64,000 bases of DNA, taken from positions 368,523 through 432,522 of the forward strand of contig CAYHBZ010000001.1 of assembly GCA_964355175.1 (NCBI GenBank), in the 5' to 3' direction. A model generated the notes under the pieces. That model made no database searches, was not told the DNA's origin, and worked only from the letters and a program-made list of their open reading frames with translations. Source of the DNA: an uncultured Gammaproteobacteria bacterium. Lineage in GTDB: Bacteria > Patescibacteriota > Patescibacteriia > Magasanikbacterales > GWA2-37-8. The position numbers were made by a program, and so were the translations under genes. This document shows, one piece after another, positions 6,777 through 64,000 of the stretch. The number at the start of each line of letters is the position of its first letter. The stretch's first letter is position 1.

Positions 6777-8426
<1,650 letters not shown>

Positions 8427-8440
8427 TTAATATATTAATT

Positions 8441-8498
8441 GTCATCCCGAACGCAGTGAGGGATCTTGGTAAAGATTCCTCGTTTCACTCGGAATGAC
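8441..8498. repeat. palindromic repeat pair (two 25-nt units, GTCATCCCGAACGCAGTGAGGGATC and GATTCCTCGTTTCACTCGGAATGAC) in the groES-groEL spacer
   Basis: Each unit is a hairpin, and the two units are imperfect inverted copies of each other. Related units occur at 42916-42980, and an exact 25-mer copy at 42411-42435. Confidence 0.6.
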
Positions 8499-8508
8499 AT
8501 TCGTTCAT

Positions 8509-8814
8509 TTATTCAAAAGTGGCTACAATATCGTTTTTATCTTCACCGGATCCTACATATAAAATTTTATAAGTTTCTTCATTGCTACCTTGACCTACTT
8601 TTATTTCTTCGCCTCCCCATTTTTTAAACAATACCTTATCTCCTACCTTCAAACCTAGTCTGACAATCGCTTCACCGTTGCCTACTGCCACTATACTACC
8701 TTCCGCTTTTTTCTCTTTATCGACGGCGGATGGTAACAAAATACCAGAGGCGGTGACTTCCTCTTCTTTGGCTGGTTTTACCACCACTCGATCGCCCAAT
8801 GGCTTGATATTCAT
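8509..8814 (-). CDS. groS: co-chaperonin GroES (10 kDa)
   Basis: 101 aa, MNIKPLGDRVVVKP…, the canonical GroES sequence. Located immediately upstream of groEL. Confidence 0.95.
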   Translation of the reverse strand: MNIKPLGDRVVVKPAKEEEVTASGILLPSAVDKEKKAEGSIVAVGNGEAIVRLGLKVGDKVLFKKWGGEEIKVGQGSNEETYKILYVGSGEDKNDIVATFE

Positions 8815-8836: not shown

Positions 8837-8863
8837 TTTTATCACTCAAATTGTTTGAGTGAT
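8837..8863 (-). promoter_or_regulatory. CIRCE (HrcA operator) inverted repeat upstream of groES
   Basis: TTATCACTC-N9-GAGTGATAA against the consensus TTAGCACTC-N9-GAGTGCTAA. The 9-nt spacer is exact, and the two half-sites carry one symmetric mismatch each. It lies 23 nt upstream of the groES start. Confidence 0.7.
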
Positions 8864-9111
8864 AATTATCATTATTTTAATGGATTTTTATTAAGTTTGT
8901 CAAGATTTAGCAGTTCAAATTTCCACATTTTTTCCACAGTAAAATTTGGCTTACTTAAAACAAAAATCCAGAGTTGGAGACGAACTCTTAGCGCCGTCCA
9001 TATATTGTCCGGACTATGCCTGTCTATGGTGTAGCCCGAAGCTATGGCGAACGCAAGGGTCTGTCCCCAATTCTGGGTTCTTATCTCAGTTCTATAGTTT
9101 GTGTATGGAGT

Positions 9112-15077: not shown

Positions 15078-15177
15078 GCCTGGACAAATTACTTTTGAGC
15101 GGGTTATGAGGCCCACGGCCGATTCCTAGATCCCGACTTAGTCGGGAGAGGAAAGCGAAAAAGTCATTTGTCCAGGC
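15078..15177. repeat. 100-bp palindromic element in the MBL-methyltransferase spacer
   Basis: 12-bp terminal inverted repeats GCCTGGACAAAT / ATTTGTCCAGGC enclose a perfect 7-bp-stem hairpin TCCCGAC-tta-GTCGGGA. It carries GATTCC/GTCAT motifs reminiscent of the GTCATTCC repeat family. Confidence 0.45.
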
Positions 15178-15190
15178 GTCTATTTCCAAG

Positions 15191-15796
15191 CTATTTTCTT
15201 GCAATAATGAGTTGATTAATCCAAATATCTTTTTCGTAAACTAAGACATTTTTTTCTACCTGGAAGGCTAAACTTTCTAGTTCTTCAACAATTTTTTCTG
15301 GACGATGATAAAAAGATTCAATTTTTATTTTTCCTTCTTGGGTCTGCACTTCCGGTGGTTCTTTTTGATTGATATTGGAAACCGCCAAAATTCCTCCGTC
15401 TTTTAATACCCTGCAAGCTTCATCAAAAAAAGTTTTTGGATCTCTCAGATGCACTATCAAAAATGCAGCGGTAACAATATCAAAAGTACTGTCAGCAAAC
15501 GGCAAATTTTCGGCATCACCAATAGTGGTTTCAATTTTTTTATCTTTATTTTTCAAAACTTTCAACATCTGCTCCGACACATCCAAAGCTGTCACTTGCG
15601 CTCCCGACTTGGACAATAGCACCGATAGCCGACCTGTCCCCGCTCCCACATCAAGCACTTTTTTACTTTTTAAATCGCCTAAAAGCGGCAAAAATTTATT
15701 TTGTTCAAAACTATTTAAATACTTTTCTTTTTTATCGTATGAAGCCGCGGCCAAATCATAGCCCGGAGCGGATTTTAAAATTTTTATTTTTGACAT
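15191..15796 (-). CDS. class I SAM-dependent methyltransferase (Methyltransf_11-like)
   Basis: Motif I VLDVGAGTGRLS, and a post-I acidic residue. 201 aa. Overlaps the 3' end of the ComEC gene by 41 nt. Confidence 0.75.
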   Translation of the reverse strand: MSKIKILKSAPGYDLAAASYDKKEKYLNSFEQNKFLPLLGDLKSKKVLDVGAGTGRLSVLLSKSGAQVTALDVSEQMLKVLKNKDKKIETTIGDAENLPFADSTFDIVTAAFLIVHLRDPKTFFDEACRVLKDGGILAVSNINQKEPPEVQTQEGKIKIESFYHRPEKIVEELESLAFQVEKNVLVYEKDIWINQLIIARK

Positions 15797-17279
15797 ATAT
15801 AACTAATAAAACATAGGTAACCACCAATGCCCAAAGCGGCAGGGCAAACTCCACACTCGCCCACGGCCAGGAGGCCAAATAATGCGCGGTTATTATAACA
15901 TACTTTAAACCAAAATAAGTAGGGAAAGCCATTAACAAGCCCAATGGAAAAAATATATAGCTGAGCAGAATGGATAAAAAAGAAAACAACATCAAAAAAG
16001 GCACGATCCACAAAATTAAGATATTGGCCAGCGGAGCTATCAGTGATAGCTGACCAAACTGAAATAAAATTAAAGGCAAAGTGGCAATAATGGCCGACAA
16101 AGTAGTGGATAATGATTCCAATATAATATACAAAAATTTATTATCGGTTTCTATTCCAAAGTTATTTAAAATTGGCGAGATATATATCAGGCCTAGGGTG
16201 GACAAAAATGACAGCTGAAAACCGGCATCCCAAATTAACACAAACGGATTCATAAGCATCATCACCGCGGCGGTAAATACCAAAACATTTCCCACTCGCG
16301 ATTGTCGGCCTAGCTGAGTGGCCAACAAAACAATAATACCCATAATCCCCGCTCTCACTACCGAAGCGGAAGCGCCGGTAAAAAATACAAACAAAATTAT
16401 TCCACCTATTACCACAAAAAATGCTTTGCGTCGATCTAGGCTCAGCCGGATCAAAATATTCATCAGCACGCAGGCAATGATACTAATATTATATCCAGAA
16501 ACCGCCACGATGTGAGTGAGACCAACTCGACTAAAATCCTCGGTCACTTCCGGCGTAAATCCTGACCGCGCGCCGTATAGTAATCCGGCGGCCAAAGAAC
16601 TTTGCGGTTCCGACCATAATTCATTGACCCGATACTGCAATCTCTGCTTTAGATCAAAAAAATTTATATATAATTTATGTAACACGGGCATATCAGTTTC
16701 CAATTTTTCTATCCGGACGCGCGTACCGCATAGCGACCACACCCCGTTGCGCGCCAAATATTTATCATAATTTAAAAAACCATCTTTCCCCTCAGGTGTT
16801 TTCAAATCACAGCCCACTCTCACCGCATCACCAAATTTAAAATCCTCATAAAGCGGTAAATTTATCAACACACCGCCGGAAACTTTTTTTGCTCCCAGCT
16901 GGGTGACATTTACAATCGCCTGCTTGCTGGATATTTTTTCATTTATCTCCTGCGATATAGTACCGGTGAAAATTTCATACTGACCGTTATAATAACTCAG
17001 CTCATTCATTGTGACGGACGGCACGGCCAGATAAAAACGCAACCCGCCCAAGATAAAAAACAACGCACACAACAAAACAAAACGAAATTTTAAATTCGCC
17101 CAATAAAAAAATAATAAAATAACCACCGACAAAAAACCGCAGTAAATAAAAAACTGCCAATCTTTATTGATAGTTTGAGACGAAAAAATTCCTACTCCCA
17201 AAATAAAACAAAAACAGAACGCCAAAAATGTTCTGCTTCTAGAATAATAAATTTTTTCTTCCCCTCCTAACATATACAC
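15756..17279 (-). CDS. comEC: ComEC/Rec2 DNA-uptake channel protein (DUF4131 + competence domain), lacking the MBL domain
   Basis: 507 aa polytopic membrane protein with ComEC competence-domain sequence (…GLTHIVAVSGYNISII…). The start codon overlaps the response-regulator stop by 1 nt. Confidence 0.75.
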   Translation of the reverse strand: MYMLGGEEKIYYSRSRTFLAFCFCFILGVGIFSSQTINKDWQFFIYCGFLSVVILLFFYWANLKFRFVLLCALFFILGGLRFYLAVPSVTMNELSYYNGQYEIFTGTISQEINEKISSKQAIVNVTQLGAKKVSGGVLINLPLYEDFKFGDAVRVGCDLKTPEGKDGFLNYDKYLARNGVWSLCGTRVRIEKLETDMPVLHKLYINFFDLKQRLQYRVNELWSEPQSSLAAGLLYGARSGFTPEVTEDFSRVGLTHIVAVSGYNISIIACVLMNILIRLSLDRRKAFFVVIGGIILFVFFTGASASVVRAGIMGIIVLLATQLGRQSRVGNVLVFTAAVMMLMNPFVLIWDAGFQLSFLSTLGLIYISPILNNFGIETDNKFLYIILESLSTTLSAIIATLPLILFQFGQLSLIAPLANILILWIVPFLMLFSFLSILLSYIFFPLGLLMAFPTYFGLKYVIITAHYLASWPWASVEFALPLWALVVTYVLLVIYVKNKNFKIRSGL

Positions 17280-17656
17280 TAACTGCCGAGTTTGGCTTTA
17301 ATTTTGGCTACTATGGAAGAAAGATTATGATTGGTTTTGATGAGATAGTCATAATTACCGTGCTTAATCAATTTCAGAATTTCATGATCATCATTTATAT
17401 TACTAAGCACGATTACCGGCACGTTCTTGCCCCACTTATTTTTGTGCAGGGCGTTGAGCACCTCCGTACCGTTCATTTTTGGCATAAATATATCAAGCAG
17501 AATCAAATCTGGCTTCTCTTCTAAGGCCATTTTCAATCCGTCTTCCCCGTTGGCGGCTTGCAATACAGTGAATTTTTCACGGGTCAATTTATCGGCCAAA
17601 ATTTTACGCGTCGCGATTTCATTTTCAATAATTAAAATTTTTTTATTGTCTATCAT
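17279..17656 (-). CDS. response regulator, stand-alone receiver (CheY-like) domain
   Basis: 125 aa, …ILIIENEIATRKIL…DLILLDIFMPKMNGTEVL…. 4-nt overlap with the kinase gene. Confidence 0.8.
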   Translation of the reverse strand: MIDNKKILIIENEIATRKILADKLTREKFTVLQAANGEDGLKMALEEKPDLILLDIFMPKMNGTEVLNALHKNKWGKNVPVIVLSNINDDHEILKLIKHGNYDYLIKTNHNLSSIVAKIKAKLGS

Positions 17657-18891: not shown

Positions 18892-20520
18892 TTATCTGGT
18901 AATACTAATTGCTTCAGCGTTTTCCGCACTACAAGCCTGAACATTTATTCTACCACCGGCTGTTTTTTGAATGGCGTAATATGTCTGGCTGTTACTGCCA
19001 GTTTTAGGATCAAACGGTAGAGAGGTGATATAAGTCGGAGCTAGCGCGGACGAAAGATCCAAACAAGCGGCGGCAGTGGTGGATGATGGAGAAGATCCGC
19101 CGCTTGAACCACTAGTACTCCCACTAATTATAGCACTTTTTAGCTCAGGAGTTAAGGCGGAATCGACGGTGTCTAGAAATGCTTTGTATTGGAAATATCG
19201 ATTATTAGAAATATTGGCGAGGGATACTGATGGAGTCGAATTGGAAGTATTGGAAGCTTCAGAATAATAGGTGTTGGCAGTGCCATCAGGACCAAAAAAT
19301 GTACCGTCAGAACAGTTGGCTTGAGCGCAGGATCTTGCTTGATATTTCAAACTAAGGGCGCCGCGTTTATACATATCACTAACTTCTGTGACAGAAAGAG
19401 CGCGAGAAAATACTGCTACCTCATCAATTAAACCTTGAAAAAAACGATTACTACTGTAGGTCGATCCAATTCTAGGATTGTGTAAAATTATATTATAATT
19501 ATTCGAAGTGGTTTCAGATTCTTTGACACCGTTTACATACACTGTAGCTTTACTGGTAGCATTATTTAAAGTATAAACTAAATGATACCACTGATTGAGA
19601 CTAACAGCCGTAGTAGAAAATACAAACGCACCGTTATTTAAAGCACACTGGACCAAATTGCTAGTATTATTTAATTGACAATGTAAATCACCGCCTGCCC
19701 AACCTTGGCTACCAAACAAACCGCGCATTTCACCTGATACTCCAGTGGATTTAAACCACATGGCAACAGAAAAATTAGTAAAATTACTATTATTTAAAGG
19801 AATTCCAATAAAATCTCCCGACCCGTCAAAACTTCCGCCGGTTCCAAACTTTGCACTGGCCGCCATAGCAGGACAACCATTGCCGCTACAGGTACCATTA
19901 TTATTGTTTCCGGAATTGTCGACAAAACTAGTCGCACCGCTGCTTTCGTCCAAATGCATCAATAAGACATTGCCATTCATACTCACATTCCCCGTTGGAT
20001 AGCCGGTCTCTGCAGCACCGCTGTTTGACAAGGCTTTACCTGTCGGCCTATTTGGCACCCAGGCAAGCGTGGACCAAGCGGCGCTGGCAGCAGCATCTTT
20101 AATGTCTGAGGTATAGGAACCACCAGTCTGTCCAACCGAAAGATTTAATAAAGAATTATTTGTGTTGTAAGTAGTATTACTATATGTACCGGCGAAAGTT
20201 GATTGACTATTATCAGTCATGGATACAGGACCGCCACTGCTGGTAGCACTACTGCCACCACAAACAACATCACATCCGGAATTGGCAGTGCCCAGCATTC
20301 TGAGATTGGTGTCGATGTTATTCGGAAACAAACCATCATTATCGAGAGAGTACTGATAAATAGCATTCAATATAGTACTGAGATCGCTTTTTCTGGCGGC
20401 GTTTCTCACTTGTGCCAATTGTTTTCCAGGATTAATGGCAACAATAACTATGCCGGCTAATATCGCAATAGCGGCTACGACTAACAGAATTTCTAATAAT
20501 GTAAAAGCTTTTTTATTCAC
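18892..20520 (-). CDS. type IV pilin-like protein with central LamG_3 (concanavalin-A-like) domain, paralog 1
   Basis: Class III signal peptide and conserved pilin helix (KKAFTLLEILLVVAAIAILAGIVIVAINP). Central region with the LamG_3 signature (…NQWYHLVYT…YVNGV…GLIDEVAVFSRALSVTEV). C-terminal module shared with the other paralogs. Confidence 0.75.
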   Translation of the reverse strand: MNKKAFTLLEILLVVAAIAILAGIVIVAINPGKQLAQVRNAARKSDLSTILNAIYQYSLDNDGLFPNNIDTNLRMLGTANSGCDVVCGGSSATSSGGPVSMTDNSQSTFAGTYSNTTYNTNNSLLNLSVGQTGGSYTSDIKDAAASAAWSTLAWVPNRPTGKALSNSGAAETGYPTGNVSMNGNVLLMHLDESSGATSFVDNSGNNNNGTCSGNGCPAMAASAKFGTGGSFDGSGDFIGIPLNNSNFTNFSVAMWFKSTGVSGEMRGLFGSQGWAGGDLHCQLNNTSNLVQCALNNGAFVFSTTAVSLNQWYHLVYTLNNATSKATVYVNGVKESETTSNNYNIILHNPRIGSTYSSNRFFQGLIDEVAVFSRALSVTEVSDMYKRGALSLKYQARSCAQANCSDGTFFGPDGTANTYYSEASNTSNSTPSVSLANISNNRYFQYKAFLDTVDSALTPELKSAIISGSTSGSSGGSSPSSTTAAACLDLSSALAPTYITSLPFDPKTGSNSQTYYAIQKTAGGRINVQACSAENAEAISITR

Positions 20521-20528
20521 ACAAAAAA

Positions 20529-22172
20529 TTATTTTGTTACAGTTATTGCTTCTCCGTTTTCAGGAGAACACGACTGCACATTAATACGACCGGCGGCGGT
20601 TTTTTTCACAGCGTAATAAGTTTTGGCACTATCGCCCACCTTTGGATCAAACGGAATAGAAGTGATATAGGTTGGCGCCAGCGCGGAAGAAATATCCAAA
20701 CAAGCGGCCGCTGTAGACGACGAAGCACCCACACTGCCTTGCACCACAGTCTGCGTACCGGCCAGATCCACACTCTTTAATTCCGGCGTCATTGATGTAG
20801 CAGGAGAATCAAAAAAAGTTTTATACTGAAAATATTGATTACTACCAATATTACTAAGTGATAAGGACGGAGTGGAAATAGATGTATTACTACTTTCTGA
20901 ATAATAAGTATTGACTGTATTGTCCGGACCAATAAATGTACCGTCTGAACAATTGGCTTGAGCGCAGCTTCGGACTTGGTATTTCAATGATAGGGCGCCG
21001 CGTTTGTACATATCAGTTACTTCTGTAGCTGACATAGAACGATTAAAAATAATTGCCTCATCCACCAAGCCATTATATTGGCCAAATCCCAACTGAATTG
21101 GGGTAGTGTTATTCCTAATACTAGTAAAGGCAAAATTCTTTGTAGACAACAAAACTCCGTTTAAATAAATTTTTCCTACACCATTATCAAAAGTAAAAAT
21201 TATATGTTGCCAGGCATTATCACCTATCCAAGTACCGTCCTGATATTCATAAGTAGTGCCAGCTGGATTAACTAAAAATACTCGCCAATAAACATTGCCG
21301 CTAATAGAGAAAGATCCATTACTAGGATTAAAACCAGCACCTTTTCCAATAATATGTCCGTAGCTTGGCCAACTGCTGGTAGCCACACTATTAAACCAAG
21401 CACCGAATGTAAGTTGATTAGAAAAAGTTAAGCTGGTACTATTTGGAACTGTTATTGGATTAGTACCGGCTTTAAAATTAGCGGCATTACCGAACTTACC
21501 AGATATCATGCTTGGACAGTTTGGATTAACACAATTTCCATTATTATTTTTACCTGAAGTATCTAAAAAAGCGGTGGCACCACTGCTTTCATCTAAATGC
21601 AATAATAATAAATTACCGCTCATATTGGCATTACCGGTGGGATAACCAGTTTCGGCAGCACTATTATTTGGCAAGGACTTTCCTGTAGGACGATTTGGCA
21701 CCCACGCCAAGGTCGTCCAACTAGTGACACCGGCTGAATCTTTTATGTTTGAAGTATATGTACCGGAAGTCTTATTAACCGAAAGGCTCAGCAAACTTGT
21801 ACCATTATTATAATTAGTGTTGGAAAATGTTCCGGAAAAAGTGGATTGGCTATTGTCGGTAATAGCGACTGGCACGGTTTGAGAAGTAGAACTACCGGCT
21901 ACTGGACCACAACTCACTCCACATCCTGATCCACTGGTACCAAGCATTCTCAAATTGGTATCGATAGATCCAGGAAAGGCCCCACTATTATCGAGCGAAT
22001 ACTGATAGATGGAATTTAAAATAGCACTAGCGTCTGATTGCCTAGCGGCATTCCTAGAGGCCGCTAATTGCTTACCTGGATTTATGGCAACAATCACAAT
22101 ACCAGCCAACACCGCAATTGCGGCCACGACTAAAAGAATTTCTAATAATGTAAACCCAGAATTTTTTTTCAT
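20529..22172 (-). CDS. type IV pilin-like protein with LamG_3 domain, paralog 2
   Basis: GFTLLEILLVVAAIAVLAGIVIVAINP N-terminus. Divergent LamG-like middle. Conserved C-terminal ~130 aa. Confidence 0.75.
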   Translation of the reverse strand: MKKNSGFTLLEILLVVAAIAVLAGIVIVAINPGKQLAASRNAARQSDASAILNSIYQYSLDNSGAFPGSIDTNLRMLGTSGSGCGVSCGPVAGSSTSQTVPVAITDNSQSTFSGTFSNTNYNNGTSLLSLSVNKTSGTYTSNIKDSAGVTSWTTLAWVPNRPTGKSLPNNSAAETGYPTGNANMSGNLLLLHLDESSGATAFLDTSGKNNNGNCVNPNCPSMISGKFGNAANFKAGTNPITVPNSTSLTFSNQLTFGAWFNSVATSSWPSYGHIIGKGAGFNPSNGSFSISGNVYWRVFLVNPAGTTYEYQDGTWIGDNAWQHIIFTFDNGVGKIYLNGVLLSTKNFAFTSIRNNTTPIQLGFGQYNGLVDEAIIFNRSMSATEVTDMYKRGALSLKYQVRSCAQANCSDGTFIGPDNTVNTYYSESSNTSISTPSLSLSNIGSNQYFQYKTFFDSPATSMTPELKSVDLAGTQTVVQGSVGASSSTAAACLDISSALAPTYITSIPFDPKVGDSAKTYYAVKKTAAGRINVQSCSPENGEAITVTK

Positions 22173-22175
22173 CTT

Positions 22176-23810
22176 CTATTTTGTTAGACTAATGGCCTCG
22201 CCATTCTCCACTGAACAAGCTTGAACATTTATTCTACCGCCAGCTGTTTTTTTTGCAGCATAATATGTTTGGCTGTTGCTACCGGTTTTGGGATCAAATG
22301 GCAGGGATGTAATATAGGTTGGTGCAAGAGCTGACGAAAGATCTAAACAAGCGGCTGCGGTGGTGGATGAAGATCCTCCGCCAGAACCACTAGTACTCCC
22401 ACTAATTACAGCACTTTTTAGCTCAGGAGTTAAGGCAGAATCAGTGGTGTCTAGAAATGCTTTGTATTGGAAATATCGATTGTTGGAAATATTGGTGAGA
22501 GATAGTGATGGAGTGGCGTTGGAAGTGTTGGAAGCTTCGGAATAATAGGTGTTGGTAGTGCCATCAGGACCAAAAAATGTACCGTCAGAACAGTTGGCTT
22601 GAGCGCAGGATCTAGTTTGAAATTTTAGACTTAGAACACCGCGTTTGTAAATGTCTGAGATTTCTGTGGCGGATAGGGATCGGTTGAAGACAGACGCTTC
22701 ATCGATGGTGCCGGTAAAATTATATGCCAAAACACCTGATTCCCCACCACTAAAATCCGTTCCGATATGGGCTACCGCGTTATTAATTCTAGGTTGACCG
22801 GTCTGAGAAGAACTGCCATCCAACACCCCGTTAATATAATATTTTACTGTTGCGCCATCCCAGGTAGCACTAATTAAAGACCATTGATTTAAATTTACTG
22901 CTCCGGTTCCAATATTGGCCGCTCCACCTACCCACAGTTGTATTCTACCGGTATTATTATACAACCCAAACCAATAGGCGGTGGCATGAGCTTTGGCTAT
23001 TACTGTATGATAGGTATGATCAGAAAAAGATGTTGGATAAATCCAAGCACTCCATGTGCCTTGACCCACATCCAAACTATTACTGTCAGCAACATTTAAA
23101 TAGGTGTTATTAAAATTACCAGCTGTACCAAATTTTCCAATTTGACCCATCGTAGGACAGGCGTTACCACTACAAGTCGCATTATTACCACTCCCCGAAC
23201 TATCGGAAAATGTAGTTGCTCCAAGAGCTTCGTTCAAATGTAGAAGTAAAACATTGCCGTTCATATTGATATTGCCGGCTGGATAACCACTTTCAGTAGC
23301 GCTATTATTTGGCAAGGCTTTGTTGGTAGGACGATTTGGGGTCCAAGCAAGAGAAGACCAAGTCGCGCTAGCAGTAGTGTCTTTAATGTCTGAGGTATAG
23401 GTGCCTGAGGTTTGGGACGAAGAAAGGTTTATTAAACTAGTATTGGTGTTGTAAATGGTGTTGGCATATATACCAGCAAAGGTTGATTGGCTATTGTCGG
23501 TGATGGTGAGAGTGTTACCACTCGAGGAACTACTGCTTGCCCCACCGCAGGATACATTACAACCGGAGGCGGCGGTGCCAATCATTTTTAGATTAGTATC
23601 TATATTATTTGGAAATTGTCCATTGTTATCCAAAGAATATTGATAAATTGAATTTAAAATTGCACTAACATCTGATCTTCTAGCAGTGTTCCTGGTAGCC
23701 GCCAGCTGTCTGGCCGGATTTATTGCCACAATCACAATACCGGCCAACACCGCGATCGCGGCCACGACCAAAAGAATTTCTAATAATGTAAAAGCTTTTG
23801 CTTTTTTCAT
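22176..23810 (-). CDS. type IV pilin-like protein with LamG_3 domain, paralog 3
   Basis: KAFTLLEILLVVAAIAVLAGIVIVAINP N-terminus. Divergent middle. C-terminus ~90% identical to paralogs 1 and 5. Confidence 0.75.
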   Translation of the reverse strand: MKKAKAFTLLEILLVVAAIAVLAGIVIVAINPARQLAATRNTARRSDVSAILNSIYQYSLDNNGQFPNNIDTNLKMIGTAASGCNVSCGGASSSSSSGNTLTITDNSQSTFAGIYANTIYNTNTSLINLSSSQTSGTYTSDIKDTTASATWSSLAWTPNRPTNKALPNNSATESGYPAGNINMNGNVLLLHLNEALGATTFSDSSGSGNNATCSGNACPTMGQIGKFGTAGNFNNTYLNVADSNSLDVGQGTWSAWIYPTSFSDHTYHTVIAKAHATAYWFGLYNNTGRIQLWVGGAANIGTGAVNLNQWSLISATWDGATVKYYINGVLDGSSSQTGQPRINNAVAHIGTDFSGGESGVLAYNFTGTIDEASVFNRSLSATEISDIYKRGVLSLKFQTRSCAQANCSDGTFFGPDGTTNTYYSEASNTSNATPSLSLTNISNNRYFQYKAFLDTTDSALTPELKSAVISGSTSGSGGGSSSTTAAACLDLSSALAPTYITSLPFDPKTGSNSQTYYAAKKTAGGRINVQACSVENGEAISLTK

Positions 23811-23821
23811 TATTTTTTTTA

Positions 23822-24268
23822 TTATCTAGTAACACTGATAGATGCGCTATTTTCGGCAGATGGAGCGCTGACAGTAATGCGTCCATTGGCAGTCTGTAAA
23901 ATTTTATAACCGGTACCATTGGTACTGGCGGCGGTTGGATCGGTTGGAATAGCCGTCAAATAAACTTCGTTTAAAGTAAGTGCGGACAAATCCACTAGGC
24001 CAGCACAACTACCACCGGTCTTACAAACTTCTACCGCGTTCTGAGTAATACCAGATGGCAATGCGCCTTTATTATCAATTGAATATTGATAAACAGCGTT
24101 TAAAATCGTGTTCACATTTACTCTTCTTTGCGCGTTACGAGTATCGGCCAATTGTTTGCCTGGATTGATAGCAATAATTACGATACCGGCCAAAATGGCG
24201 ATAGCGGCCACCACCAATAAAATTTCTAAAAGGGTAAAACCCTTTTTATTTAAATTTTCCATATTCAT
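23822..24268 (-). CDS. short type IV pilin (148 aa) lacking the LamG insert
   Basis: KKGFTLLEILLVVAAIAILAGIVIIAINP prepilin N-terminus. Its C-terminal beta-domain (…TANGRITVSAPSAENSASISVTR) is homologous to the C-terminal module of the large paralogs. Confidence 0.75.
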   Translation of the reverse strand: MNMENLNKKGFTLLEILLVVAAIAILAGIVIIAINPGKQLADTRNAQRRVNVNTILNAVYQYSIDNKGALPSGITQNAVEVCKTGGSCAGLVDLSALTLNEVYLTAIPTDPTAASTNGTGYKILQTANGRITVSAPSAENSASISVTR

Positions 24269-24310
24269 ATTATGAATAATTAATAAATTAATTTTTTAAA
24301 TTAGATATAT

Positions 24311-25996
24311 TTATCTTGTCACACTTATAACTTCAGAATTTTCCGCGCTACAGGCCTGAACATTTATTCTGCCACCAGCGGTCTTTTGAATGGCATAATA
24401 TGTCTGGCTGTTACTACCAGTTTTGGGATCAAATGGTAATGAAGTGATATAAGTTGGAGTCAATGCCGAAGAAAGATTCAAACAAGCGGCAGCGGTGGTG
24501 GACGAAGAAGATCCTCCACTAGAACCACTGGTACTCCCGCTAATTATAACACTTTTTAACTCCGGAGTTAAGGCGGAATCGACGGTATCTAGAAATCCTT
24601 TATATTGGAAATATCGATTATTGGAAATATTAGCGAGAGACAGTGACGGAATAGTATTGGAGGTGTTGGAAGCTTCGGAATAATAGGTATTGGCAGTGCC
24701 GTCGGGGCCGGCGAATGTACCGTCGGAGCAGTTGGCTTGGACACAACTGCGGACTTGGTATTTTAGACTAAGGGCGCCGCGTTTGTAATGGTCGGCAACT
24801 TCGGTTGCAGAAAGGGCGCGGTTATAAAGAGCAAATTCATCCAATGTACCACTAAAAAAATAATTTGTTCCGGCTCCGCGGTCGCCAAAATAAATTGGCT
24901 GATTACCAAAATTATTGGTATTATTGGCATTCAGACCACTGTTTGTGCCGGTAGTTTTTGATCCATTTATATAGGTAGAGACTTCGTTGGTTGGCAAACT
25001 TTTATCAAACACTACCACCACATGATACCAAACATTGGTCTGTAAAATATTATCAGCCACCCAAACAGAATAATACACATTGCCTCGTACGCCGGCTCCA
25101 ATTTTACCGTTAGGATTGATCGATACAACGTAACCATCGGAAACATTATTATAATTTGTAGAAGCTTCAAAAATTTGTTCACCGACAGCTGGTGTCAAGG
25201 AAGCAGGTTTAAACCAAAAAGATACCGATATTTTGTTGGTAGCCGAGACATCTACCGGACCAGTCTTGGCATAGTCATCTACCCCATCAAACTTTACACC
25301 TGTGCCAAAAATTCCACTTGATTGATAAGTTAATCCATTAAAAGTAGCGGCATTATTACCACTGCCAGATAAATCTTGCCAAGCTCCGCTCGCTTCATCC
25401 AGGTGATACAAAAGTACATCCCCACTCATGTTAGCATTCCCACTTGGATAACCGGTTTCAGTGGCACCAGAGTTTGGCAATGGTTTATTGGTAGGACGAT
25501 TTGGTATCCAAGCCAATGTAGACCAAGTGGCACTGGCGGTGGCGTCTTTAATGTCTGAAGTATACGTACCAGGGGTTTGGTTGGCAGAGAGATTTAAGAG
25601 ATTATTATTTGTATTGTAAGTGGTGTTGCTGTAAGTACCGGCAAAAGTGGATTGACTATTATCGGTAATGGATACAGGACCACCACTGCTGGTGGCACTA
25701 CTGGCACCACAAGAAACATTACAACCGGAATTTGATGTACCGAGCATCCTTAGGTTAGTATCGATGGTGTTTGGGACCAACCCAGTATTATCTATCGCGT
25801 ATTGATAAATTGCGTTTAAAATTGCGCTCACATCACTACGACGAGCAGCATTTCTTGTTTGGGCTAATTGTTTGGCCGGATTTATTGCAACCACAACTAT
25901 ACCGGCTAAAATGGCAATAGCGGCCACTACCAGAAGAATTTCTAGCAAAGTGAAACCAGTTTTAATTTTATAACATTTATGCTCCATAATTACCAA
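24311..25996 (-). CDS. type IV pilin-like protein with LamG_3 domain, paralog 4 (561 aa)
   Basis: TGFTLLEILLVVAAIAILAGIVVVAINP N-terminus. LamG-like middle (…FDGVDDY…WYHVVVVFD…YINGS…). Conserved C-terminus. Confidence 0.75.
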   Translation of the reverse strand: MVIMEHKCYKIKTGFTLLEILLVVAAIAILAGIVVVAINPAKQLAQTRNAARRSDVSAILNAIYQYAIDNTGLVPNTIDTNLRMLGTSNSGCNVSCGASSATSSGGPVSITDNSQSTFAGTYSNTTYNTNNNLLNLSANQTPGTYTSDIKDATASATWSTLAWIPNRPTNKPLPNSGATETGYPSGNANMSGDVLLYHLDEASGAWQDLSGSGNNAATFNGLTYQSSGIFGTGVKFDGVDDYAKTGPVDVSATNKISVSFWFKPASLTPAVGEQIFEASTNYNNVSDGYVVSINPNGKIGAGVRGNVYYSVWVADNILQTNVWYHVVVVFDKSLPTNEVSTYINGSKTTGTNSGLNANNTNNFGNQPIYFGDRGAGTNYFFSGTLDEFALYNRALSATEVADHYKRGALSLKYQVRSCVQANCSDGTFAGPDGTANTYYSEASNTSNTIPSLSLANISNNRYFQYKGFLDTVDSALTPELKSVIISGSTSGSSGGSSSSTTAAACLNLSSALTPTYITSLPFDPKTGSNSQTYYAIQKTAGGRINVQACSAENSEVISVTR

Positions 25997-40428: not shown

Positions 40429-42903
40429 CTATCTTACTTCCGCGTTAAATTCTTTTTTTAGTTCTTCTTGCGCTTTTTTTACAGCGTTTTCTATTTCTTC
40501 TGTGGTGAGCGTGCGATCACTGTGCGCGTAAGTGAGGCGATAGGCCATACTCTTATAGCCTTCGCCAATTTTGTTTCCCTCGTAAACATCGAATAGTTCT
40601 ATATTTTTTAGCAGAGCATTGGTTTTTTTCAATGCTTTCAAAATATCAGCGTGGGTAAATTCTTTTTTTACCAAAAAGCCGAGATCGCGGGTCACTGCTG
40701 GATACACGGAAGCGGTGTGATAATTTGTCTTATCACCTTGTCTAGACAGCATTTCTACCAATATTGACAAATTCAACTGCAACACACCGACGCGCTGTTC
40801 AATACCCAAATTCTGAGCTATCAGTGGGCTAATTTCACATACTACACCAAGCACTTCGCCATGCGCCCGAACCAAAGCTAATCTGGCCGGATGTTCCCAA
40901 GGTTGTACCATATCGGCTGGCACAATTTCAAAATCGGTTTTAAGCGCGGCAAAAATATTTTCCAAAGCGCGGCGGGCCTGCCAAAATGGCGTGGCTTCTT
41001 TTTTCCCAGCATATACCGCGGCCACCCAAGTATCTTGTTTTGGCAACAAACTATCACCGTTGCTATCCAGACGCAAACCGCTTTGTTTGGTAGAAAAAAC
41101 TTTTCCAATTTCAAAAATTTTTACTTCCGAATAATTTTCAATATTATTTTTTACATTCTCCAACAAATTTGGCAATAAATTGCGACGCAAAAACGGACGC
41201 TCTTTGGAGAGTGGATTATCCAATTCCAAATATTTTTTCAGATCATCCCCCATTTTTATCACCTGAGCGTCACTGACAAAAGAATAATTATACACTTCAT
41301 TATATCCCAAACTTTTTACCAAAGTCTCAGCGACATTTCTTTCCAAATCACGCAAAGCATTTTTCTCCGGCGGATTAATTGAAAAAGACGGTAAGCTTGA
41401 AGGAATATTTTCATAACCAAAAAATCTAGCCACTTCTTCCACAATATCTTCGGAAATGGAAATATCTTTGGTAGCACGCCAGGTTGGAATCGTTACCAGC
41501 AAACTCTTTTTCTTGGTTTTCACTTCAAAACCCAAACGCGTCAAAATATTTAAAATATCTTTCTGCGGAATTTCCGTGCCTAATTTTTTAGCAAAAATTT
41601 CATTTGGCAATTCTATTGGCCCGACCGAAAGGTGAAATTTCTTTTCATCCACTACTTTGCTGGCGACCTTGGCGTCCGGACAAAATTCCAATGCCAATTC
41701 CACGGCTTTAAGCAATGCCACTTCACAGAGATTTGGATCCAAACTCTTTTCAAAACGCATGGCCGAATCGGTACGCAAACCCAAACGAGTAGAAGTTTTA
41801 CGCACAGCTGAAGCATTGAAATTGGCTGATTCAAAAATTACCGTAGTAGTGTCGTCGTAAGTACCGCTCTCCAGACCACCTTTTACACCCGCGATGCCTA
41901 GAGATTTATTTTCAGCGACAATCATGAGATCGTTTTCCGACAAAACATATTCAGCTTCGTCCAAAGCCACAAATTTTTCCCCTTCTTTGGCACTACGCAC
42001 GCCGATATTATGACCGACTTTAGCCGCGTCAAAAGCATGCATTGGCTGGCCAAGTTCCAACATTATATAATTGGTAATATCCACGATATTATTAATCGGG
42101 TTGGACCCCACGGCCAACAATTTTTCTTGAAGCCATTTTGGCGACGGACCAACTTTTATACCCGATACGGCCACTGCCATATAGCGTGGACAAAGTTTAA
42201 AATTCTCCACTTCCACTTTTAATTTAAAATCTTTACCTGGTTTTATTTTTGGTGTTTCGTATTTTTTTAAATCACGATTAAATAGCACGGCCACTTCACG
42301 GGCAATACCATAATGACCCCAGAGATCCGGGCGATTGGAAAGAGATTTGTTATCTATTTCCAAAATTGTATCATTGAGACCAAGTACTTGGGACAATGGA
42401 AGACCGATAAGATTCCTCGTTTCACTCGGAATGACGGCGCCACTTGCAATGACAGCGGTGAGATCCAAAATTTCTTTTTCTTCTTTGGACGTAAACATTT
42501 CTCCCAAACCAATTTCATCCGCCGCACAGATCATACCAAAAGATTCCTCACCGCGAATTTTGGTAGGTACCAATTCAATCAATTCCCCTTCTCCATGCCA
42601 CTGCACTTTGGCTCCGACTTGGGCAATCGCGGCCAGCATTCCCTCTGCCACATTACTGCCACCACAGACTATCTGTAATTCTTCCGAACCCACATCCACG
42701 CGGCATAATTTTAATTTATCGGCATTAGGATGCTTAGTAGCGGAAACAACTTTACCAACTACCACATTATTCAAAAGCTCACCTTGTTTTTTTATACCTT
42801 CCACTTCTACCGTAGTGGCTTTCAAGCGAGCGGCCACTTCTTCCACGGTAATAGTATCGGACAAATTCACGAATTTTTTTAACCAATTATAGGAAATTAA
42901 CAT
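40429..42903 (-). CDS. pheT: phenylalanine--tRNA ligase beta subunit
   Basis: Canonical MLISYNWLKKF start (Met18 of the longest ORF), tRNA-binding, B3/4, B5 and FDX-ACB domains. The 17-codon upstream extension of the longest ORF is just the translation of the palindromic repeat. Confidence 0.92.
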   Translation of the reverse strand: MLISYNWLKKFVNLSDTITVEEVAARLKATTVEVEGIKKQGELLNNVVVGKVVSATKHPNADKLKLCRVDVGSEELQIVCGGSNVAEGMLAAIAQVGAKVQWHGEGELIELVPTKIRGEESFGMICAADEIGLGEMFTSKEEKEILDLTAVIASGAVIPSETRNLIGLPLSQVLGLNDTILEIDNKSLSNRPDLWGHYGIAREVAVLFNRDLKKYETPKIKPGKDFKLKVEVENFKLCPRYMAVAVSGIKVGPSPKWLQEKLLAVGSNPINNIVDITNYIMLELGQPMHAFDAAKVGHNIGVRSAKEGEKFVALDEAEYVLSENDLMIVAENKSLGIAGVKGGLESGTYDDTTTVIFESANFNASAVRKTSTRLGLRTDSAMRFEKSLDPNLCEVALLKAVELALEFCPDAKVASKVVDEKKFHLSVGPIELPNEIFAKKLGTEIPQKDILNILTRLGFEVKTKKKSLLVTIPTWRATKDISISEDIVEEVARFFGYENIPSSLPSFSINPPEKNALRDLERNVAETLVKSLGYNEVYNYSFVSDAQVIKMGDDLKKYLELDNPLSKERPFLRRNLLPNLLENVKNNIENYSEVKIFEIGKVFSTKQSGLRLDSNGDSLLPKQDTWVAAVYAGKKEATPFWQARRALENIFAALKTDFEIVPADMVQPWEHPARLALVRAHGEVLGVVCEISPLIAQNLGIEQRVGVLQLNLSILVEMLSRQGDKTNYHTASVYPAVTRDLGFLVKKEFTHADILKALKKTNALLKNIELFDVYEGNKIGEGYKSMAYRLTYAHSDRTLTTEEIENAVKKAQEELKKEFNAEVR

Positions 42904-42915
42904 AATATTTTTATT

Positions 42916-42980
42916 GTCATTCCCGTGAAAACGGGAATCTATTACTTCAAACACTTGATTCCCGCTTTCGCGGGAATGAC
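42916..42980. repeat. palindromic repeat pair (GTCATTCCCGTGAAAACGGGAATC … GATTCCCGCTTTCGCGGGAATGAC) in the pheS-pheT spacer
   Basis: Same unit architecture as 8441-8498: each unit is a hairpin, and the two units are inverted copies of each other. Confidence 0.6.
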
Positions 42981-42982
42981 AG

Positions 42983-44014
42983 TTAGAACTGTTTTAGAAA
43001 TTTTAAATCACCGCTTTCGAGATGGCGGATGTCTTCAATGCCATACTTCAACATAGCTAAGCGTGTAAGCCCCAATCCAAAAGCAAACCCCTGATATTTA
43101 TTAGGATCTACTTTCCCTTCCTTTAAAACATTGGGATGAATCATGCCGGCGCCAAAAATTTCTAACCAACCGGTATTTTTACAAACTCTACAGCCTTTGC
43201 CTTTGCAAATAAAACAAGTTACTTCCCCATTTACACCCGGCTCTACAAATGGATAATATTTTGGACGCAAACGCACTTGCGTATCGACGCCGTACAAATG
43301 TTTAGCGACCGCCTCAAGCACGCCCTTCATGTGAGCAAAAGTAATATTTTCATCAATCACAAAACCTTCCAATTGATAAAAAGTGTGTTCGTGGCGCGGG
43401 TCGGTAGCTTCGTTTCTATAACATTTACCTGGCACAATCGCGCGTAGTGGCGCCCCCTGCTTAAGCATAGAGCGTACCTGCATCGAAGAAGTGTGCGTAC
43501 GCATCACCATACCAGGATGATTTTTGATATAAAAAGTATCCTGCATATCACGCGCCGGATGATTCTCAGGCACATTCACTGCGGAAAAATTAAAATAATC
43601 ACTTTCCAACTCCGGACCATCAAGCACCATAAAACCCATGGAAACAAAAAAATCTTCCAAGTCTTTTTGGATAATAGTGTTCGGATGAAAAGTGCCTGGT
43701 TCAATATGTGGTAAAGCAGGCTGAGTAATATCCACCCGCTCTTTTTCTACCGCTTTGTTCCAATCCGCATTCATTAATTCATTTTTCTTTATTTCAAACG
43801 CCGCTTCAATATCTTTTTTTACTTCATTGGCTATCACACCCACTACTTTACGAGCCTCATCGGTGAGATCTTTGAGCCCTTTCATCAAATTAGTAAGCTC
43901 CCCGCTTTTGCGACCAAGAAATTTATTTTCCAAATCTTCGAGCTGGATTTTATCACTCACGGATTTGATGGCAAGCAAGGCTTCAGTTTTGAGTTGTTCA
44001 AATTTTGATTGCAT
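42983..44014 (-). CDS. pheS: phenylalanine--tRNA ligase alpha subunit
   Basis: 343 aa. Class II motifs (…FRPKYYPFVEPG…, …GFAFGLGLTRLAML…). Confidence 0.93.
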   Translation of the reverse strand: MQSKFEQLKTEALLAIKSVSDKIQLEDLENKFLGRKSGELTNLMKGLKDLTDEARKVVGVIANEVKKDIEAAFEIKKNELMNADWNKAVEKERVDITQPALPHIEPGTFHPNTIIQKDLEDFFVSMGFMVLDGPELESDYFNFSAVNVPENHPARDMQDTFYIKNHPGMVMRTHTSSMQVRSMLKQGAPLRAIVPGKCYRNEATDPRHEHTFYQLEGFVIDENITFAHMKGVLEAVAKHLYGVDTQVRLRPKYYPFVEPGVNGEVTCFICKGKGCRVCKNTGWLEIFGAGMIHPNVLKEGKVDPNKYQGFAFGLGLTRLAMLKYGIEDIRHLESGDLKFLKQF

Positions 44015-61076: not shown

Positions 61077-62420
61077 ATGAAAACCAATATAATTTTCACT
61101 TGCTCAAACTGCAATGCCCAATTCCAAAAATGGACCGGGCGGTGTTTGGAATGTGGTAAATGGGGTACGGTGGAAAAAAATATGATAACTGCTAGTGCGG
61201 TTAAAAATAACGAAACAAATAATCATCCCATAGCTAAAACGATAAAACTTTCCGAAGTAAACCAACAAAATTTTGCCCGTTTAAAGACCAATATATCAGA
61301 ATTGGATAGAGTTCTTGGCGGCGGAATTGTGCCTGGAAGTCTAATTCTCCTTGGCGGCGATCCCGGCATTGGCAAATCCACTCTAGCCCTACAGCTATCG
61401 GCCATTTTTGCGGATGCATTATATTTTTCTGGTGAGGAGTCGGTAGAACAAATCAAACTACGCGCCAGCCGTCTGGAAATTTCATCCTCTACCCTGGGAT
61501 TGGCCAACGAAACCAACGTGGAAACTATTATTGCTACCGCGATTGCCCAAAAAACCAAGCTCACAATAGTAGACTCCATTCAAACCATGCGCTCAGCCGA
61601 AGTAGAAGGCGAAGCCGGCAATATAAATCAGGTCCGTGCTTGTACCGTAAAATTGATGGAAGCGGCCAAAAAAAATAATATTACTTTTATCCTGATTGGC
61701 CAAGTAACTAAAGACGGCAATGTAGCCGGACCAAAAACTTTGGAACATTTGGTAGATACCGTACTCTATTTGGAAGGTGATCGCTTTCATGATTTTCGTA
61801 TTTTAAGAGCCGCCAAAAATCGCTTTGGGCCAACTGACGAAGTCGGAATTTTTACAATGGAAAAAGACGGTCTACGCGAAGTAAAAAATCCTTCCGCTTC
61901 CCTGCTGGGAGAACGCACTGATTCAGTACCAGGCACAATTATCACTTGTGTGATGGAAGGTACTCGGCCAATGCTAATTGAAATACAAGCCCTAGTCACC
62001 AAAACTAATTTCGGTTTCCCTCAGCGCCGCTCATCAGGATTTGATCTCAACCGTCTACAGGTTTTAATTGGTGTATTATCTCGTCGTGCTGGACTACCAC
62101 TAGAAAGTTATGACGTCTTTTTAAATGTGGTTGGTGGGCTAGAGGTAGACGAACCAGCCGCAGACCTAGCTGTAATCATGGCAATAGCTTCAGGCCTCAA
62201 AGACAAAACTATCCCTATTGGCCTAGCCGCTTTTGGTGAAGTAGGTCTCAGCGGTGAAGTACGCTCAGTAAATAATACTGAGAAAAGATTAAATGAAATA
62301 AAAAATTTAGGACTTCAAATTGCTGTCTTACCAGCATCGGCCAAACTACCAAAAATTACTGGCCTAAAAATCGCTCCAATCAAAAACGTCCAGGAGGTGG
62401 TAGAAAAAATAATCCAATAA
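61077..62420 (+). CDS. radA: DNA repair protein RadA/Sms
   Basis: N-terminal C4 zinc finger (CSNCNAQF…CLECGKWG), RecA-like Walker A GGDPGIGKST, the KNRFG motif, and a C-terminal Lon-like domain. Confidence 0.92.
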   Translation: MKTNIIFTCSNCNAQFQKWTGRCLECGKWGTVEKNMITASAVKNNETNNHPIAKTIKLSEVNQQNFARLKTNISELDRVLGGGIVPGSLILLGGDPGIGKSTLALQLSAIFADALYFSGEESVEQIKLRASRLEISSSTLGLANETNVETIIATAIAQKTKLTIVDSIQTMRSAEVEGEAGNINQVRACTVKLMEAAKKNNITFILIGQVTKDGNVAGPKTLEHLVDTVLYLEGDRFHDFRILRAAKNRFGPTDEVGIFTMEKDGLREVKNPSASLLGERTDSVPGTIITCVMEGTRPMLIEIQALVTKTNFGFPQRRSSGFDLNRLQVLIGVLSRRAGLPLESYDVFLNVVGGLEVDEPAADLAVIMAIASGLKDKTIPIGLAAFGEVGLSGEVRSVNNTEKRLNEIKNLGLQIAVLPASAKLPKITGLKIAPIKNVQEVVEKIIQ

Positions 62421-62442
62421 ACAGAAGAAGTCTGACAGAATA

Positions 62443-62637
62443 AAAAATCTGGATATAATATAACAAAATAAGTGAGCGCTGAAAATCCGAGCAAATAATT
62501 TGTGAGCCGACGAAGCGTGGCTGGCCGTGCTGTATGAGGAGCCAAGCGACGAGTTCACGGCCAGAGCTTTGGCGGGTTGCAAATTATGCGAGGATTTTCA
62601 CAGCGAACGTTTTTGTTATATTATATCCAGATTTTTT
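62443..62637. repeat. ~195-bp nested palindromic element (possible structured ncRNA, MITE, or bidirectional terminator) between radA and recG
   Basis: Perfect 27-bp terminal inverted repeats AAAAAATCTGGATATAATATAACAAAA / TTTTGTTATATTATATCCAGATTTTTT. A GC-rich interior carries further inverted repeats (GCGCTGAAAATC/GATTTTCACAGCG; CTGGCCGTG/CACGGCCAG). The right arm overlaps the recG stop codon. Confidence 0.5.
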
Positions 62638-64000
62638 ATTCGAGATGCACCAACTTTTCGAAACTTTTTATCTTTTGTTTTAACAGTGGTAATTTATCCA
62701 AATTATCAGCCGCTTTTACCGCTGCTTCGCGCGCCATTTTTACGATAGTGTAATCGGTTAATTTAGCCAATTGCAACCCGGCAACACCGCTTTGAGCCGT
62801 GCCATATACTTCGCCTGGTCCCCTATCCTCTAGATCTTTTTGTGCCAATTTAAAACCACTCAAATTGCCTTCAAAGAATTTTAATCTATCTAAAGTTTTT
62901 TCACTAGCGCTGTCGGTAAATAAAAAACAATAAGATTGATGAATAGATCGCCCAACACGACCGCGGAATTGATGTAACTGTGCCAAACCAAAACGCTCCG
63001 CACCCTCGATCATCATCACCGAGGCATTAGGTATATCAATACCTACTTCTATCACCGAAGTAGCCACCAAAATATCAATCTCATGATTTTTAAATCTTCT
63101 CATAGTTGATTCTTTTTCAGCGGACTTTAGTTTGCCGTGGAGAAAATCTACTTTCAAATCCGGGAATATTTTCTTGGATAATTTTTCATATTCGGCCAAG
63201 ACGGATTTCTTATCACCGCTATCATTTTCAATAAGAGGACACACCACAAACGCCTGACGACCCTGCCGGATCTGCGCCCGAATAAAATCATAAGCTTTTT
63301 GTCGATTATACACTTCTACCAACCTACTCATAATTGGCTTGCGTCCGGCTGGCAATTCGTCAATCACCGACAGGTCCAGATCGCCATATAAAGTGAGCGC
63401 CAAAGAACGTGGAATCGGCGTGGCAGTCAAACTAAGAAAATGCACGCCTTTGCCTTTTTGTTTTATATCTTGGCGTTGTTCCACGCCAAATCTATGCTGC
63501 TCATCGACTATAGCCAAACCTAATTTTTTAAATTCAATTTTCTCCGATAATAAAGCGTGAGTACCAATTGCCAAAGCAATTTTACCGTTCTTTAAATCTT
63601 CTACTATTTCTTTTTTCAATTTTTTACTTTCAATATTTTCTTCACCAGCATTCTTGGCAAATTGCGAACGAGTAAATAAACAAATAGGAGTATCGAGGTG
63701 AAATAACAAACGACTCAAATTATCAAAATGTTGCTTGGCCAAAATTTCGGTTGGTGCTAGCAATACAGACTGAAAACCATTTAAGGTGGTATTATATAGT
63801 GCCATGGCGGCCACGACCGTTTTACCAGAGCCAACATCCCCAGATAACAAACGATTCATCGGAGTGGGCTTAGACAGATCTTTCAAAATTTCCCAAGCTG
63901 ATAATTTTTGTGGTTTAGTCAAAGCGAACGGCAATTTTCCCACAAATTCCTTGATTTCTTTTTCTTTGAAATCCAATGCGGGCGCCTTTTGCAAAGCCCG
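62636..64000 (-). CDS. recG: ATP-dependent DNA helicase RecG (C-terminal ~450 aa; N-terminus beyond window end)
   Basis: Walker A GDVGSGKT, DEQHRFGV (DEAH box), a helicase C-terminal domain, and a TRG motif region. No start codon within the window. Confidence 0.88.
   Translation of the reverse strand, partial: RALQKAPALDFKEKEIKEFVGKLPFALTKPQKLSAWEILKDLSKPTPMNRLLSGDVGSGKTVVAAMALYNTTLNGFQSVLLAPTEILAKQHFDNLSRLLFHLDTPICLFTRSQFAKNAGEENIESKKLKKEIVEDLKNGKIALAIGTHALLSEKIEFKKLGLAIVDEQHRFGVEQRQDIKQKGKGVHFLSLTATPIPRSLALTLYGDLDLSVIDELPAGRKPIMSRLVEVYNRQKAYDFIRAQIRQGRQAFVVCPLIENDSGDKKSVLAEYEKLSKKIFPDLKVDFLHGKLKSAEKESTMRRFKNHEIDILVATSVIEVGIDIPNASVMMIEGAERFGLAQLHQFRGRVGRSIHQSYCFLFTDSASEKTLDRLKFFEGNLSGFKLAQKDLEDRGPGEVYGTAQSGVAGLQLAKLTDYTIVKMAREAAVKAADNLDKLPLLKQKIKSFEKLVHLE

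Follow-up and report, generated by a model that had tools for sequence, protein, structure and literature searches.

Why should the junctions of two essential operons, groES–groEL and pheS–pheT, each hold a pair of short hairpins that face each other, and what kind of element are they? The question arises from a 64,000-nt stretch of DNA (the window) from a metagenome-assembled genome (MAG) of Candidatus Magasanikbacteria (CPR/Patescibacteria). The first-pass annotation of this DNA had described paired palindromic units at both junctions, and both pairs are present as claimed: two opposed 26-nt units between groES and groEL, and two opposed units of the same architecture between pheS and pheT. 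The placement inside operons, just past the upstream stop codon, is also borne out, at 9 nt from the groES stop and 1 nt from the pheS stop. The tally of units was incomplete, however; the dimers were listed correctly, but a further unit inside pheT, which a regex scan revealed, had been missed.

The window holds five (T/C)GTCAT-tagged hairpin units, which make up two head-to-head dimers and one single unit inside pheT (Table 1), and the genes around all of them lie on the minus strand. Every unit has (T/C)GTC at its 5′ side, a stem starting with AT and a C at its 3′ side, and two types can be distinguished. The type I units, s2A and s2B, share the consensus TGTC, ATTCCCGY, GAAA, RCGGGAAT, C, and the type II units, s1A, s1B and the one in pheT, share TGTC/CGTC, ATYCC-GA, 7 nt, GA-GGRAT, C. 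The stem of s1A, for example, consists of 5 bp (ATCCC/GGGAT) extended by G·A/A·G and closed by an 11-nt loop, with the C directly 3′ of the palindrome; s1A and s1B have the same length and opposite orientations. The core GTCAT...ATC of the pheT unit is identical to the s1B core on the minus strand at 25 of 25 nt.

Table 1. Positions of the hairpin units and of the other features discussed, numbered from the first nucleotide of the window.
Feature	Type	Position	Strand	Sequence or composition
groEL ATG		8415-8417		
groES-groEL spacer		8418-8508		91 nt
groES-groEL dimer		8440-8499		60 nt: s1A + 8-nt spacer + s1B, head-to-head, tags outward
s1A	II	8440-8465	+	TGTCATCCCGAACGCAGTGAGGGATC; TGTC tag
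s1B	II	8474-8499	-	GATTCCTCGTTTCACTCGGAATGACA on + strand, TGTCATTCCGAGTGAAACGAGGAATC on - strand
groES stop		8509-8511		
CIRCE-like operator		8839-8865		TTATCACTC-N9-GAGTGATAA
Promoter-like site		8874-8903	-	TTGACA-18-TAAAAT
Element between methyltransferase and MBL-fold genes		15078-15177		100 nt
comEC-methyltransferase gene pair		15191-17656		
Laminin_G_3 paralogues		18892-25996		four tandem genes
pheT intragenic unit	II, CGTC tag	42411-42436	-	CGTCATTCCGAGTGAAACGAGGAATC
Partial tandem copy of the 5′ half of the pheT unit		42437-42454	-	18 nt, TGTCATTGCAAGTGGCGC
pheT ATG (true start)		42901-42903		
pheS-pheT dimer		42915-42981		67 nt: s2A + 17-nt spacer + s2B, head-to-head
s2A	I	42915-42939	+	TGTCATTCCCGTGAAAACGGGAATC; TGTC, ATTCCCGT, GAAA, ACGGGAAT, C
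s2B	I	42957-42981	-	GATTCCCGCTTTCGCGGGAATGACA; TGTC, ATTCCCGC, GAAA, GCGGGAAT, C
pheS stop		42983-42985		
radA		61077-62420		
Element between radA and RecG-like helicase gene		62438-62641		204 nt, non-coding

G+C-rich hairpins after stop codons, in a genome of about 40% G+C, could be taken for intrinsic terminators or attenuators between cistrons, or simply for chance palindromes. However, the motif GTCATYCC occurs seven times in the window, while 1.97 occurrences are expected from dinucleotide-preserving shuffles, none of which (0/100) gets to seven; by the same measure, the type II pattern occurs three times against 0.04 expected and the type I pattern three times against 0.33. Chance is ruled out by the shuffles and by the recurrence of an identical 25-nt sequence at another locus. 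As to termination, neither dimer is followed by a T-run on the coding strand, and a terminator scan was negative at both sites, so that with no terminator signature in the sense direction read-through is to be expected. We give very little credence to either version of this explanation.

The anatomy is familiar from two bodies of published work. The first, by Di Nocera, De Gregorio and Rocco (BMC Genomics 2013), concerns the CGTC-tagged REPs, in which the tag is often altered to TGTC and can also be CCTC, the stems have 8–9 bp and begin with A-T, family 1 has 4-nt loops, and a short tail follows; head-to-head dimers with the tags outside predominate, the copies lie near the upstream stop between co-oriented genes, and intragenic copies are known, also in tRNA synthetase genes (PMC3733652). 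The family CGTC-1 goes under the names dRS3 in Neisseria and RPE-6 in Rickettsia as well (PMC3733652). The second is the study of Chenal et al. (Nat Commun 2025), who characterized the Neisseria repeat NTS, CGTCATTCCCGCGMAVGCGGGAATCYRG, and generalized it as “Ssn-related motifs”, or SRM (PMC11893778). The corresponding enzyme, SsnA, has 94 aa and belongs to the GIY-YIG proteins (cd10448); it binds the hairpin in single-stranded DNA only, and its cut falls a few nucleotides further upstream; cutting needs three bases 5′ of the palindrome and binding needs the C 3′ of it, and the enzyme is inactive on double-stranded DNA and on RNA (PMC11893778). Cleavage was demonstrated for the Neisseria and Wolbachia enzymes, and Neisseria SsnA restricts incoming transforming DNA (PMC11893778). 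The motif is found on both sides of 42% of the ssnA homologues, and the repeat-ssnA-repeat arrangement was likened to an insertion sequence, although mobilization by Ssn was only hypothesized by the authors (PMC11893778).

When the window units are compared with the 28-nt Neisseria NTS consensus, s2B agrees at 26 of 28 positions (2 mismatches) and s2A at 24 of 28 (4 mismatches). The published SRM search pattern, HGTCWYN(0-2)YYVSBRHN(0-5)WNVSBRGN(0-2)RNCYNB (PMC11893778), has a single match in the window, s2A, with a shuffle mean of 0.09; s2B fails the pattern and so do s1A, s1B and the pheT unit, the type II units because their loop is too long. What the window units share with the NTS/SRM repeats (PMC11893778) is the 5′ (C/T)GTC tag, the ATTCCCGCG-loop-CGCGGGAAT palindrome, the 3′ C and a YRG-like tail, and the oriented flanks that are vital for Ssn, the 5′ GTC and the 3′ C, are present in all five. 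They differ in their host, a MAG from the CPR/Patescibacteria (neither “Patescibacteria” nor “Candidatus” appears in the main text of PMC11893778), in that most tags are TGTC and not CGTC, and in that three of the five have a 5-bp stem and an 11-nt loop. The anatomy of CGTC-1 (PMC3733652) is found in s2A and s2B, which have the 8-bp stem from AT, the 4-nt loop and the TGTC variant of the tag; further CGTC-1 traits seen here are the 3-nt tail, the head-to-head dimers, their positions 1 and 9 nt past a stop, and an in-frame copy in a tRNA synthetase gene. The type II units share the tag and the AT start with CGTC-1, while their stem and loop lengths are beyond the stated ranges. Judged by sequence, the units are most likely NTS/SRM repeats, or CGTC-tagged REPs, and so belong to a known kind of element, in a new host and with a new variant. 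The pair of repeat and enzyme entered the literature only in 2025, where its behavior as an insertion sequence is speculative; the family is now seen in the Candidate Phyla Radiation, including a longer-loop variant that escapes the published search pattern.

The REP/BIME class suggested in the first-pass annotation is apt, given palindromic units and dimers placed just after stops inside operons. The RAYT or IS200-like partner suggested along with it is not. REPINs mobilized by a RAYT, or miniature elements derived from IS200/IS605, do have a similar architecture, in which short palindromes bearing an asymmetric tag form inverted pairs and occur between genes in multiple copies, and the GTAG REPs/REPINs with RAYT offer a further parallel in that a small enzyme gene sits between its own hairpin repeats while non-autonomous inverted doublets are scattered elsewhere. 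But the tag expected in that case is GTAG, the tag of RAYT-associated REPs, whereas the CGTC/TGTC REPs have no associated transposase genes (PMC3733652). No Y1_Tnp or IS200 domain was found in the Pfam-scanned proteins of the window, which take in all but a few of its ORFs, or among the precomputed hits on related contigs, no RAYT was found, and the genes flanked by the repeats in relatives are of the GIY-YIG type, a different enzyme superfamily from HUH Y1. It would be most surprising if a RAYT or an IS200/IS605 element were behind these units.

The evidence for an Ssn partner comes from the relatives. Pairs of outward-tagged units, 350–380 bp apart, enclose ORFs of about 100 aa that score as GIY-YIG (PF01541, 57 and 48 bits); the ssn calls in Patescibacteria rest on this Pfam family, on size and on context, and not on cd10448. 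A tblastn search over all fetched loci returned eight such GIY-YIG genes, five of them tightly flanked on both sides, and GIY-YIG ORFs lie between outward-tagged units in the loci L128, L157, L004, L047 and L109. Repeats flank ssn on both sides in L128, L157, L290 and L291, and on one side in L288/L289, which are one locus in two assemblies and carry three tandem type II copies on that side. Type II units take this position at four loci, on both sides in L157, L290 and L291 and on one side in L288/L289, and the window unit s1A, TGTCATCCCGAACGCAGTGAGGGATC, is near-identical to the ssn-flanking units of L157 (TGTCATCCCGAACGAATGTGAGGGATC) and L291 (TGTCATCCTGAACGCAGTGAAGGATC). The small single-domain GIY-YIG genes of about 95–100 aa flanked by repeats, together with the mostly intergenic position of the copies, are features shared with the NTS/SRM system. 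Within the window itself no ssn or other GIY-YIG gene was detected by tblastn and by a Pfam scan that covered all but a few ORFs, and none of the best 120 of 1292 protein-search matches to Ssn lies on the source contig of 953,736 bp, which carries the exact PheT of the window; among these best 120 of 1292, the Ssn genes are mostly on very short contigs. A search of the PDB gave no Ssn structure and nothing closer than the UPF0213 GIY-YIG protein 1zg2, which matched weakly (E 0.008), and NCBIfam has no specific model for the small Patescibacteria GIY-YIG proteins. At L291:3001-3665 two small GIY-YIG genes are adjacent, with type II units upstream and between them and a PIF1-type helicase gene beside them; they are possibly paralogous Ssn enzymes with different specificities.

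How widely the unit is spread was assessed with an unbiased census that took in every perfect hairpin with 7 or more bp in its stem, over 1.26 Mb of GroEL loci from Patescibacteria. No 5′ context was more frequent than TGTC+AT, which shared first place with poly-A contexts at 30 cases, and CTGG+AT, the reverse of the tail CCAG, was enriched too. Among 41 tagged Patescibacteria units, the base at −1 is T in 36 and a C follows the stem in 36, with a tail of the form C-Y-A-G, and all seven close unit pairs in these loci are head-to-head with the tags outside (7/7, with no tail-to-tail and no head-to-tail pair). When only GTCAT and a correctly spaced ATC were fixed, 21 of 74 matches paired at all six free stem positions, in a bimodal distribution; the matches paired at five or more of the six number 23 and cover 10 different stems, with loops that are mostly GAAA. 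Since the stems are many and yet the pairing is kept and the flanks are constant, both the hairpin and its oriented flanks are maintained. In IMG/VR, type I occurs in more than 120 contigs and type II in 83 stretches. The possibility that the family is limited to the window copies, with no conservation elsewhere, does not hold, as the unit is very widespread. In the closest relatives, however, the corresponding spacers contain no unit.

The groES–groEL junction illustrates this. The dimer begins 9 nt past the groES stop and finishes 22 nt ahead of the groEL ATG. The best matches of the window GroEL, at 94–95% identity, come from two MAGs of Candidatus Magasanikbacteria; Patescibacteria account for all of the next 80. 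In the five closest relatives (GroEL 84–95% identical), the spacer is a 14–16-nt A/T stretch that contains no element, and the coding DNA on either side aligns with the window base for base. In several more distant Patescibacteria (L131, L143, L149, L153, L161 and L180) the groES–groEL spacer is occupied by different TGTCAT...ATGACA dimers or by other long palindromes, which indicates that this spacer is a repeated insertion target.

The pheS–pheT junction differs as well. In the relatives L284, L285 and L287, whose PheT is 83–85% identical, the junction reads ...TTCTAG T ATG..., with a single base between the two genes, which suggests translational coupling there; the window has 76 nt more and has lost that junction. 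Its dimer begins 1 nt past the pheS stop and finishes 11 nt ahead of the true pheT ATG. The longest pheT ORF opens at a GTG inside the dimer and runs on through ...DSRFHGNDNKNI into the true Met, just as the first-pass annotation had said when it noted that the ORF reads through the element; gene callers here extend pheT too far, through the dimer, and repeats of this sort also interrupt the assembly of metagenomes.

With both sites empty in the closest relatives, the two dimers are insertions and not conserved regulatory structures, and by this comparison of filled and empty sites they are recent insertions in the window lineage. The polymorphism runs in the other direction as well: a type I unit stands at L285:3795, where the spacer of the window has none, and L157 has a dimer between comEC and the methyltransferase gene, whose orthologues overlap in the window. 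No target-site duplication is recognizable at the three filled/empty comparisons (groES–groEL, pheS–pheT and the pheT unit), nor is there a clean excision footprint. Both dimer insertions bring a few A/T-rich bases outside the tags, which would fit cutting in a variable flank. Filled and empty orthologous sites at 83–95% protein identity point to recent gain of dimers and support mobility.

The unit inside pheT is a somewhat different case. It is in frame and encodes (A)VIPSETRNL, and the 18-nt partial copy next to it gives the window pheT six codons more than L284. In PheT alignments the unit accounts for 11 extra residues relative to distant orthologues (from the metagenome scan with PheT, 57% identity at best) and for 8 relative to the 83–85% group, and its position is a variable segment, residues ~149–166, which differs in length among orthologues. 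The pheT of L284 carries a unit too (TGTCATTACGAGTGAAACGAGGAATC, with one stem mismatch), while L285 and L287 have unrelated sequence of almost equal length in its place. The event looks like a replacement of 26 to 32 nt rather than a simple insertion. A repeat translated within an essential protein, here in a variable PheT segment, is reminiscent of the Rickettsia palindromic elements (RPE), but unlike the RPE-1 type, which measures 100–150 nt, pheT has only a 25-nt unit and an 18-nt partial duplicate, 11 residues in all. A second case of translated repeats in a housekeeping gene was seen in an rsmA/ksgA-like ORF at L157:19024-20058, which holds two units in frame (...CHSRENGNPE... and ...PRFHGDDKY...).

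Could the dimers nevertheless be selected as cis-acting RNA structures that set the GroES:GroEL and PheS:PheT ratios, acting as barriers to 3′ exonucleases, as RNase III sites or as blocks to ribosome entry? Both are transcribed in the sense direction inside their operons, 1–9 nt past a stop codon. On the coding (minus) strand each is predicted to fold into one long hairpin, of −28.2 kcal/mol (z −4.3) for groES–groEL and −41.3 kcal/mol (z −8.1) for pheS–pheT, far better than the shuffles, and the tagged dimers or long palindromes in the groES–groEL spacers of the six distant Patescibacteria, as well as the related units in the Rfam models of two sRNAs (WsnRNA46, and FtrB with 34 bits against a gathering score of 66), could be read in the same sense. 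However, the dimers are missing from the closest relatives, so the structures are not conserved in these operons, and units are also found within the pheT coding sequence and beside unrelated genes. The two partners of a dimer often differ, and what is conserved is the hairpin of each single unit with its tag and 3′ C and not the long RNA helix. Ssn, moreover, is inactive on RNA (PMC11893778).

GroES/GroEL and PheS/PheT are fixed-ratio complexes, for which a new hairpin between the genes has no obvious benefit. This, together with the close relatives that do without the elements, leads us to read the effects on the operons as tolerated side effects and not as selected regulation. An incidental effect of the dimers on the RNA is likely; a selected one we consider improbable.

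With regard to the Rfam models, no family reaches its gathering threshold in the window, and permissive thresholds give only sub-threshold hairpin matches. Many of these are to miRNA precursors and reflect generic long hairpins. The match to the FtrB sRNA (RF02748) was likewise set aside, at 34.4 bits against a gathering score of 66 and with a likeness limited to the shared GUCAUUCCCGCG...CGGGAAUC unit. The models for Francisella FtrB and Wolbachia WsnRNA46 (RF02625) both contain this unit (window 42891-43004), and what was annotated there as an sRNA is probably in each case an SRM dimer that is transcribed.

Our preferred explanation, which we hold to be likely on the whole, is that the hairpins are Ssn-related motif units that spread mainly as head-to-head dimers in the Magasanikbacteria lineage. 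The unit would be a short DNA hairpin defined by its asymmetric 5′ (C/T)GTC tag, its AT-starting stem and the C directly 3′ of it. By analogy with the published enzymes, the single-stranded unit would be the binding site of Ssn, and this GIY-YIG nuclease of about 95 aa would cut a few nucleotides upstream of the tag. The units would spread in Magasanikbacteria as head-to-head dimers, and occasionally singly, in the manner of non-autonomous mobile DNA, with an Ssn encoded elsewhere in the genome, or formerly present, presumably generating or propagating the copies. The consequences for the host operons would be by-products and not the reason for the elements; these may include a stable hairpin on the polycistronic mRNA, located 11–22 nt ahead of the downstream start, a pheS/pheT junction that is no longer tight, and a PheT longer by 11 residues. 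In this reduced genome the insertions are tolerated between groES and groEL, between pheS and pheT, and in frame in PheT.

A bolder version of this explanation can be put forward, tentatively, and we doubt that it holds in full. The head-to-head SRM dimers may be truly mobile, non-autonomous elements and functional analogues of REPINs, driven by a GIY-YIG single-strand nuclease and not by a tyrosine transposase, and active now in CPR genomes of about 1 Mb, where they would land in the 1–16-nt junctions of essential operons and, in pheT, even within the reading frame; the system may also process imported single-stranded DNA. The latter role may be considered in view of the ssn cassette upstream of comEC in L157 and of the ComEC, type IV pilus and RadA genes of the window. 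CPR bacteria are thought to depend on DNA uptake. As for the genes concerned, the repeat-ssn-repeat cassette lies directly upstream of comEC in a related Magasanikbacteria MAG (L157:1-2600), and the 3′ end of the comEC ORF there is formed by an SRM dimer (...FPRKRESS...); the comEC-methyltransferase pair of the window has neither the cassette nor the dimer. The window also encodes ComEC, PilB, PilC, pilins, RadA and a RecG-like helicase, a DNA-uptake context for a system built on a single-strand DNA nuclease.

The third site that the first-pass annotation had assigned to the family, between the methyltransferase and MBL-fold genes, does not belong to it. The element there has 19-bp inverted ends and a predicted fold of −54.6 kcal/mol (z −6.2), and it lacks the GTCAT tag; its likeness to a unit is confined to the right side of the inner hairpin (GTCGGGATCTAG). 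This inner hairpin, CCTC-TCCCGAC-TAA-GTCGGGA-TCTAGG, resembles the SRM tail in its 3′ half. No second copy was present in any fetched locus or in IMG/VR, and there was no Rfam match.

Several other features of the window may be mentioned. The non-coding element between radA and the RecG-like helicase gene carries perfect terminal inverted repeats of 31 nt along with nested ones (I1, I7, I18), and resembles a miniature inverted-repeat element. It is also where two independent assemblies of this organism stop, L282 at 47 nt after radA and L283 just beyond the element, as a repeat present in multiple copies would suggest. Ahead of groES is a CIRCE-like operator, which agrees at 16 of 18 positions with the HrcA operator consensus TTAGCACTC-N9-GAGTGCTAA, and a strong promoter-like site lies just upstream of it. 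Finally, the four tandem paralogues of about 545 aa with Laminin_G_3 (concanavalin-like) domains are interleaved with pilin-like genes upstream of pilB/pilC, and are probably pilus-associated surface proteins.
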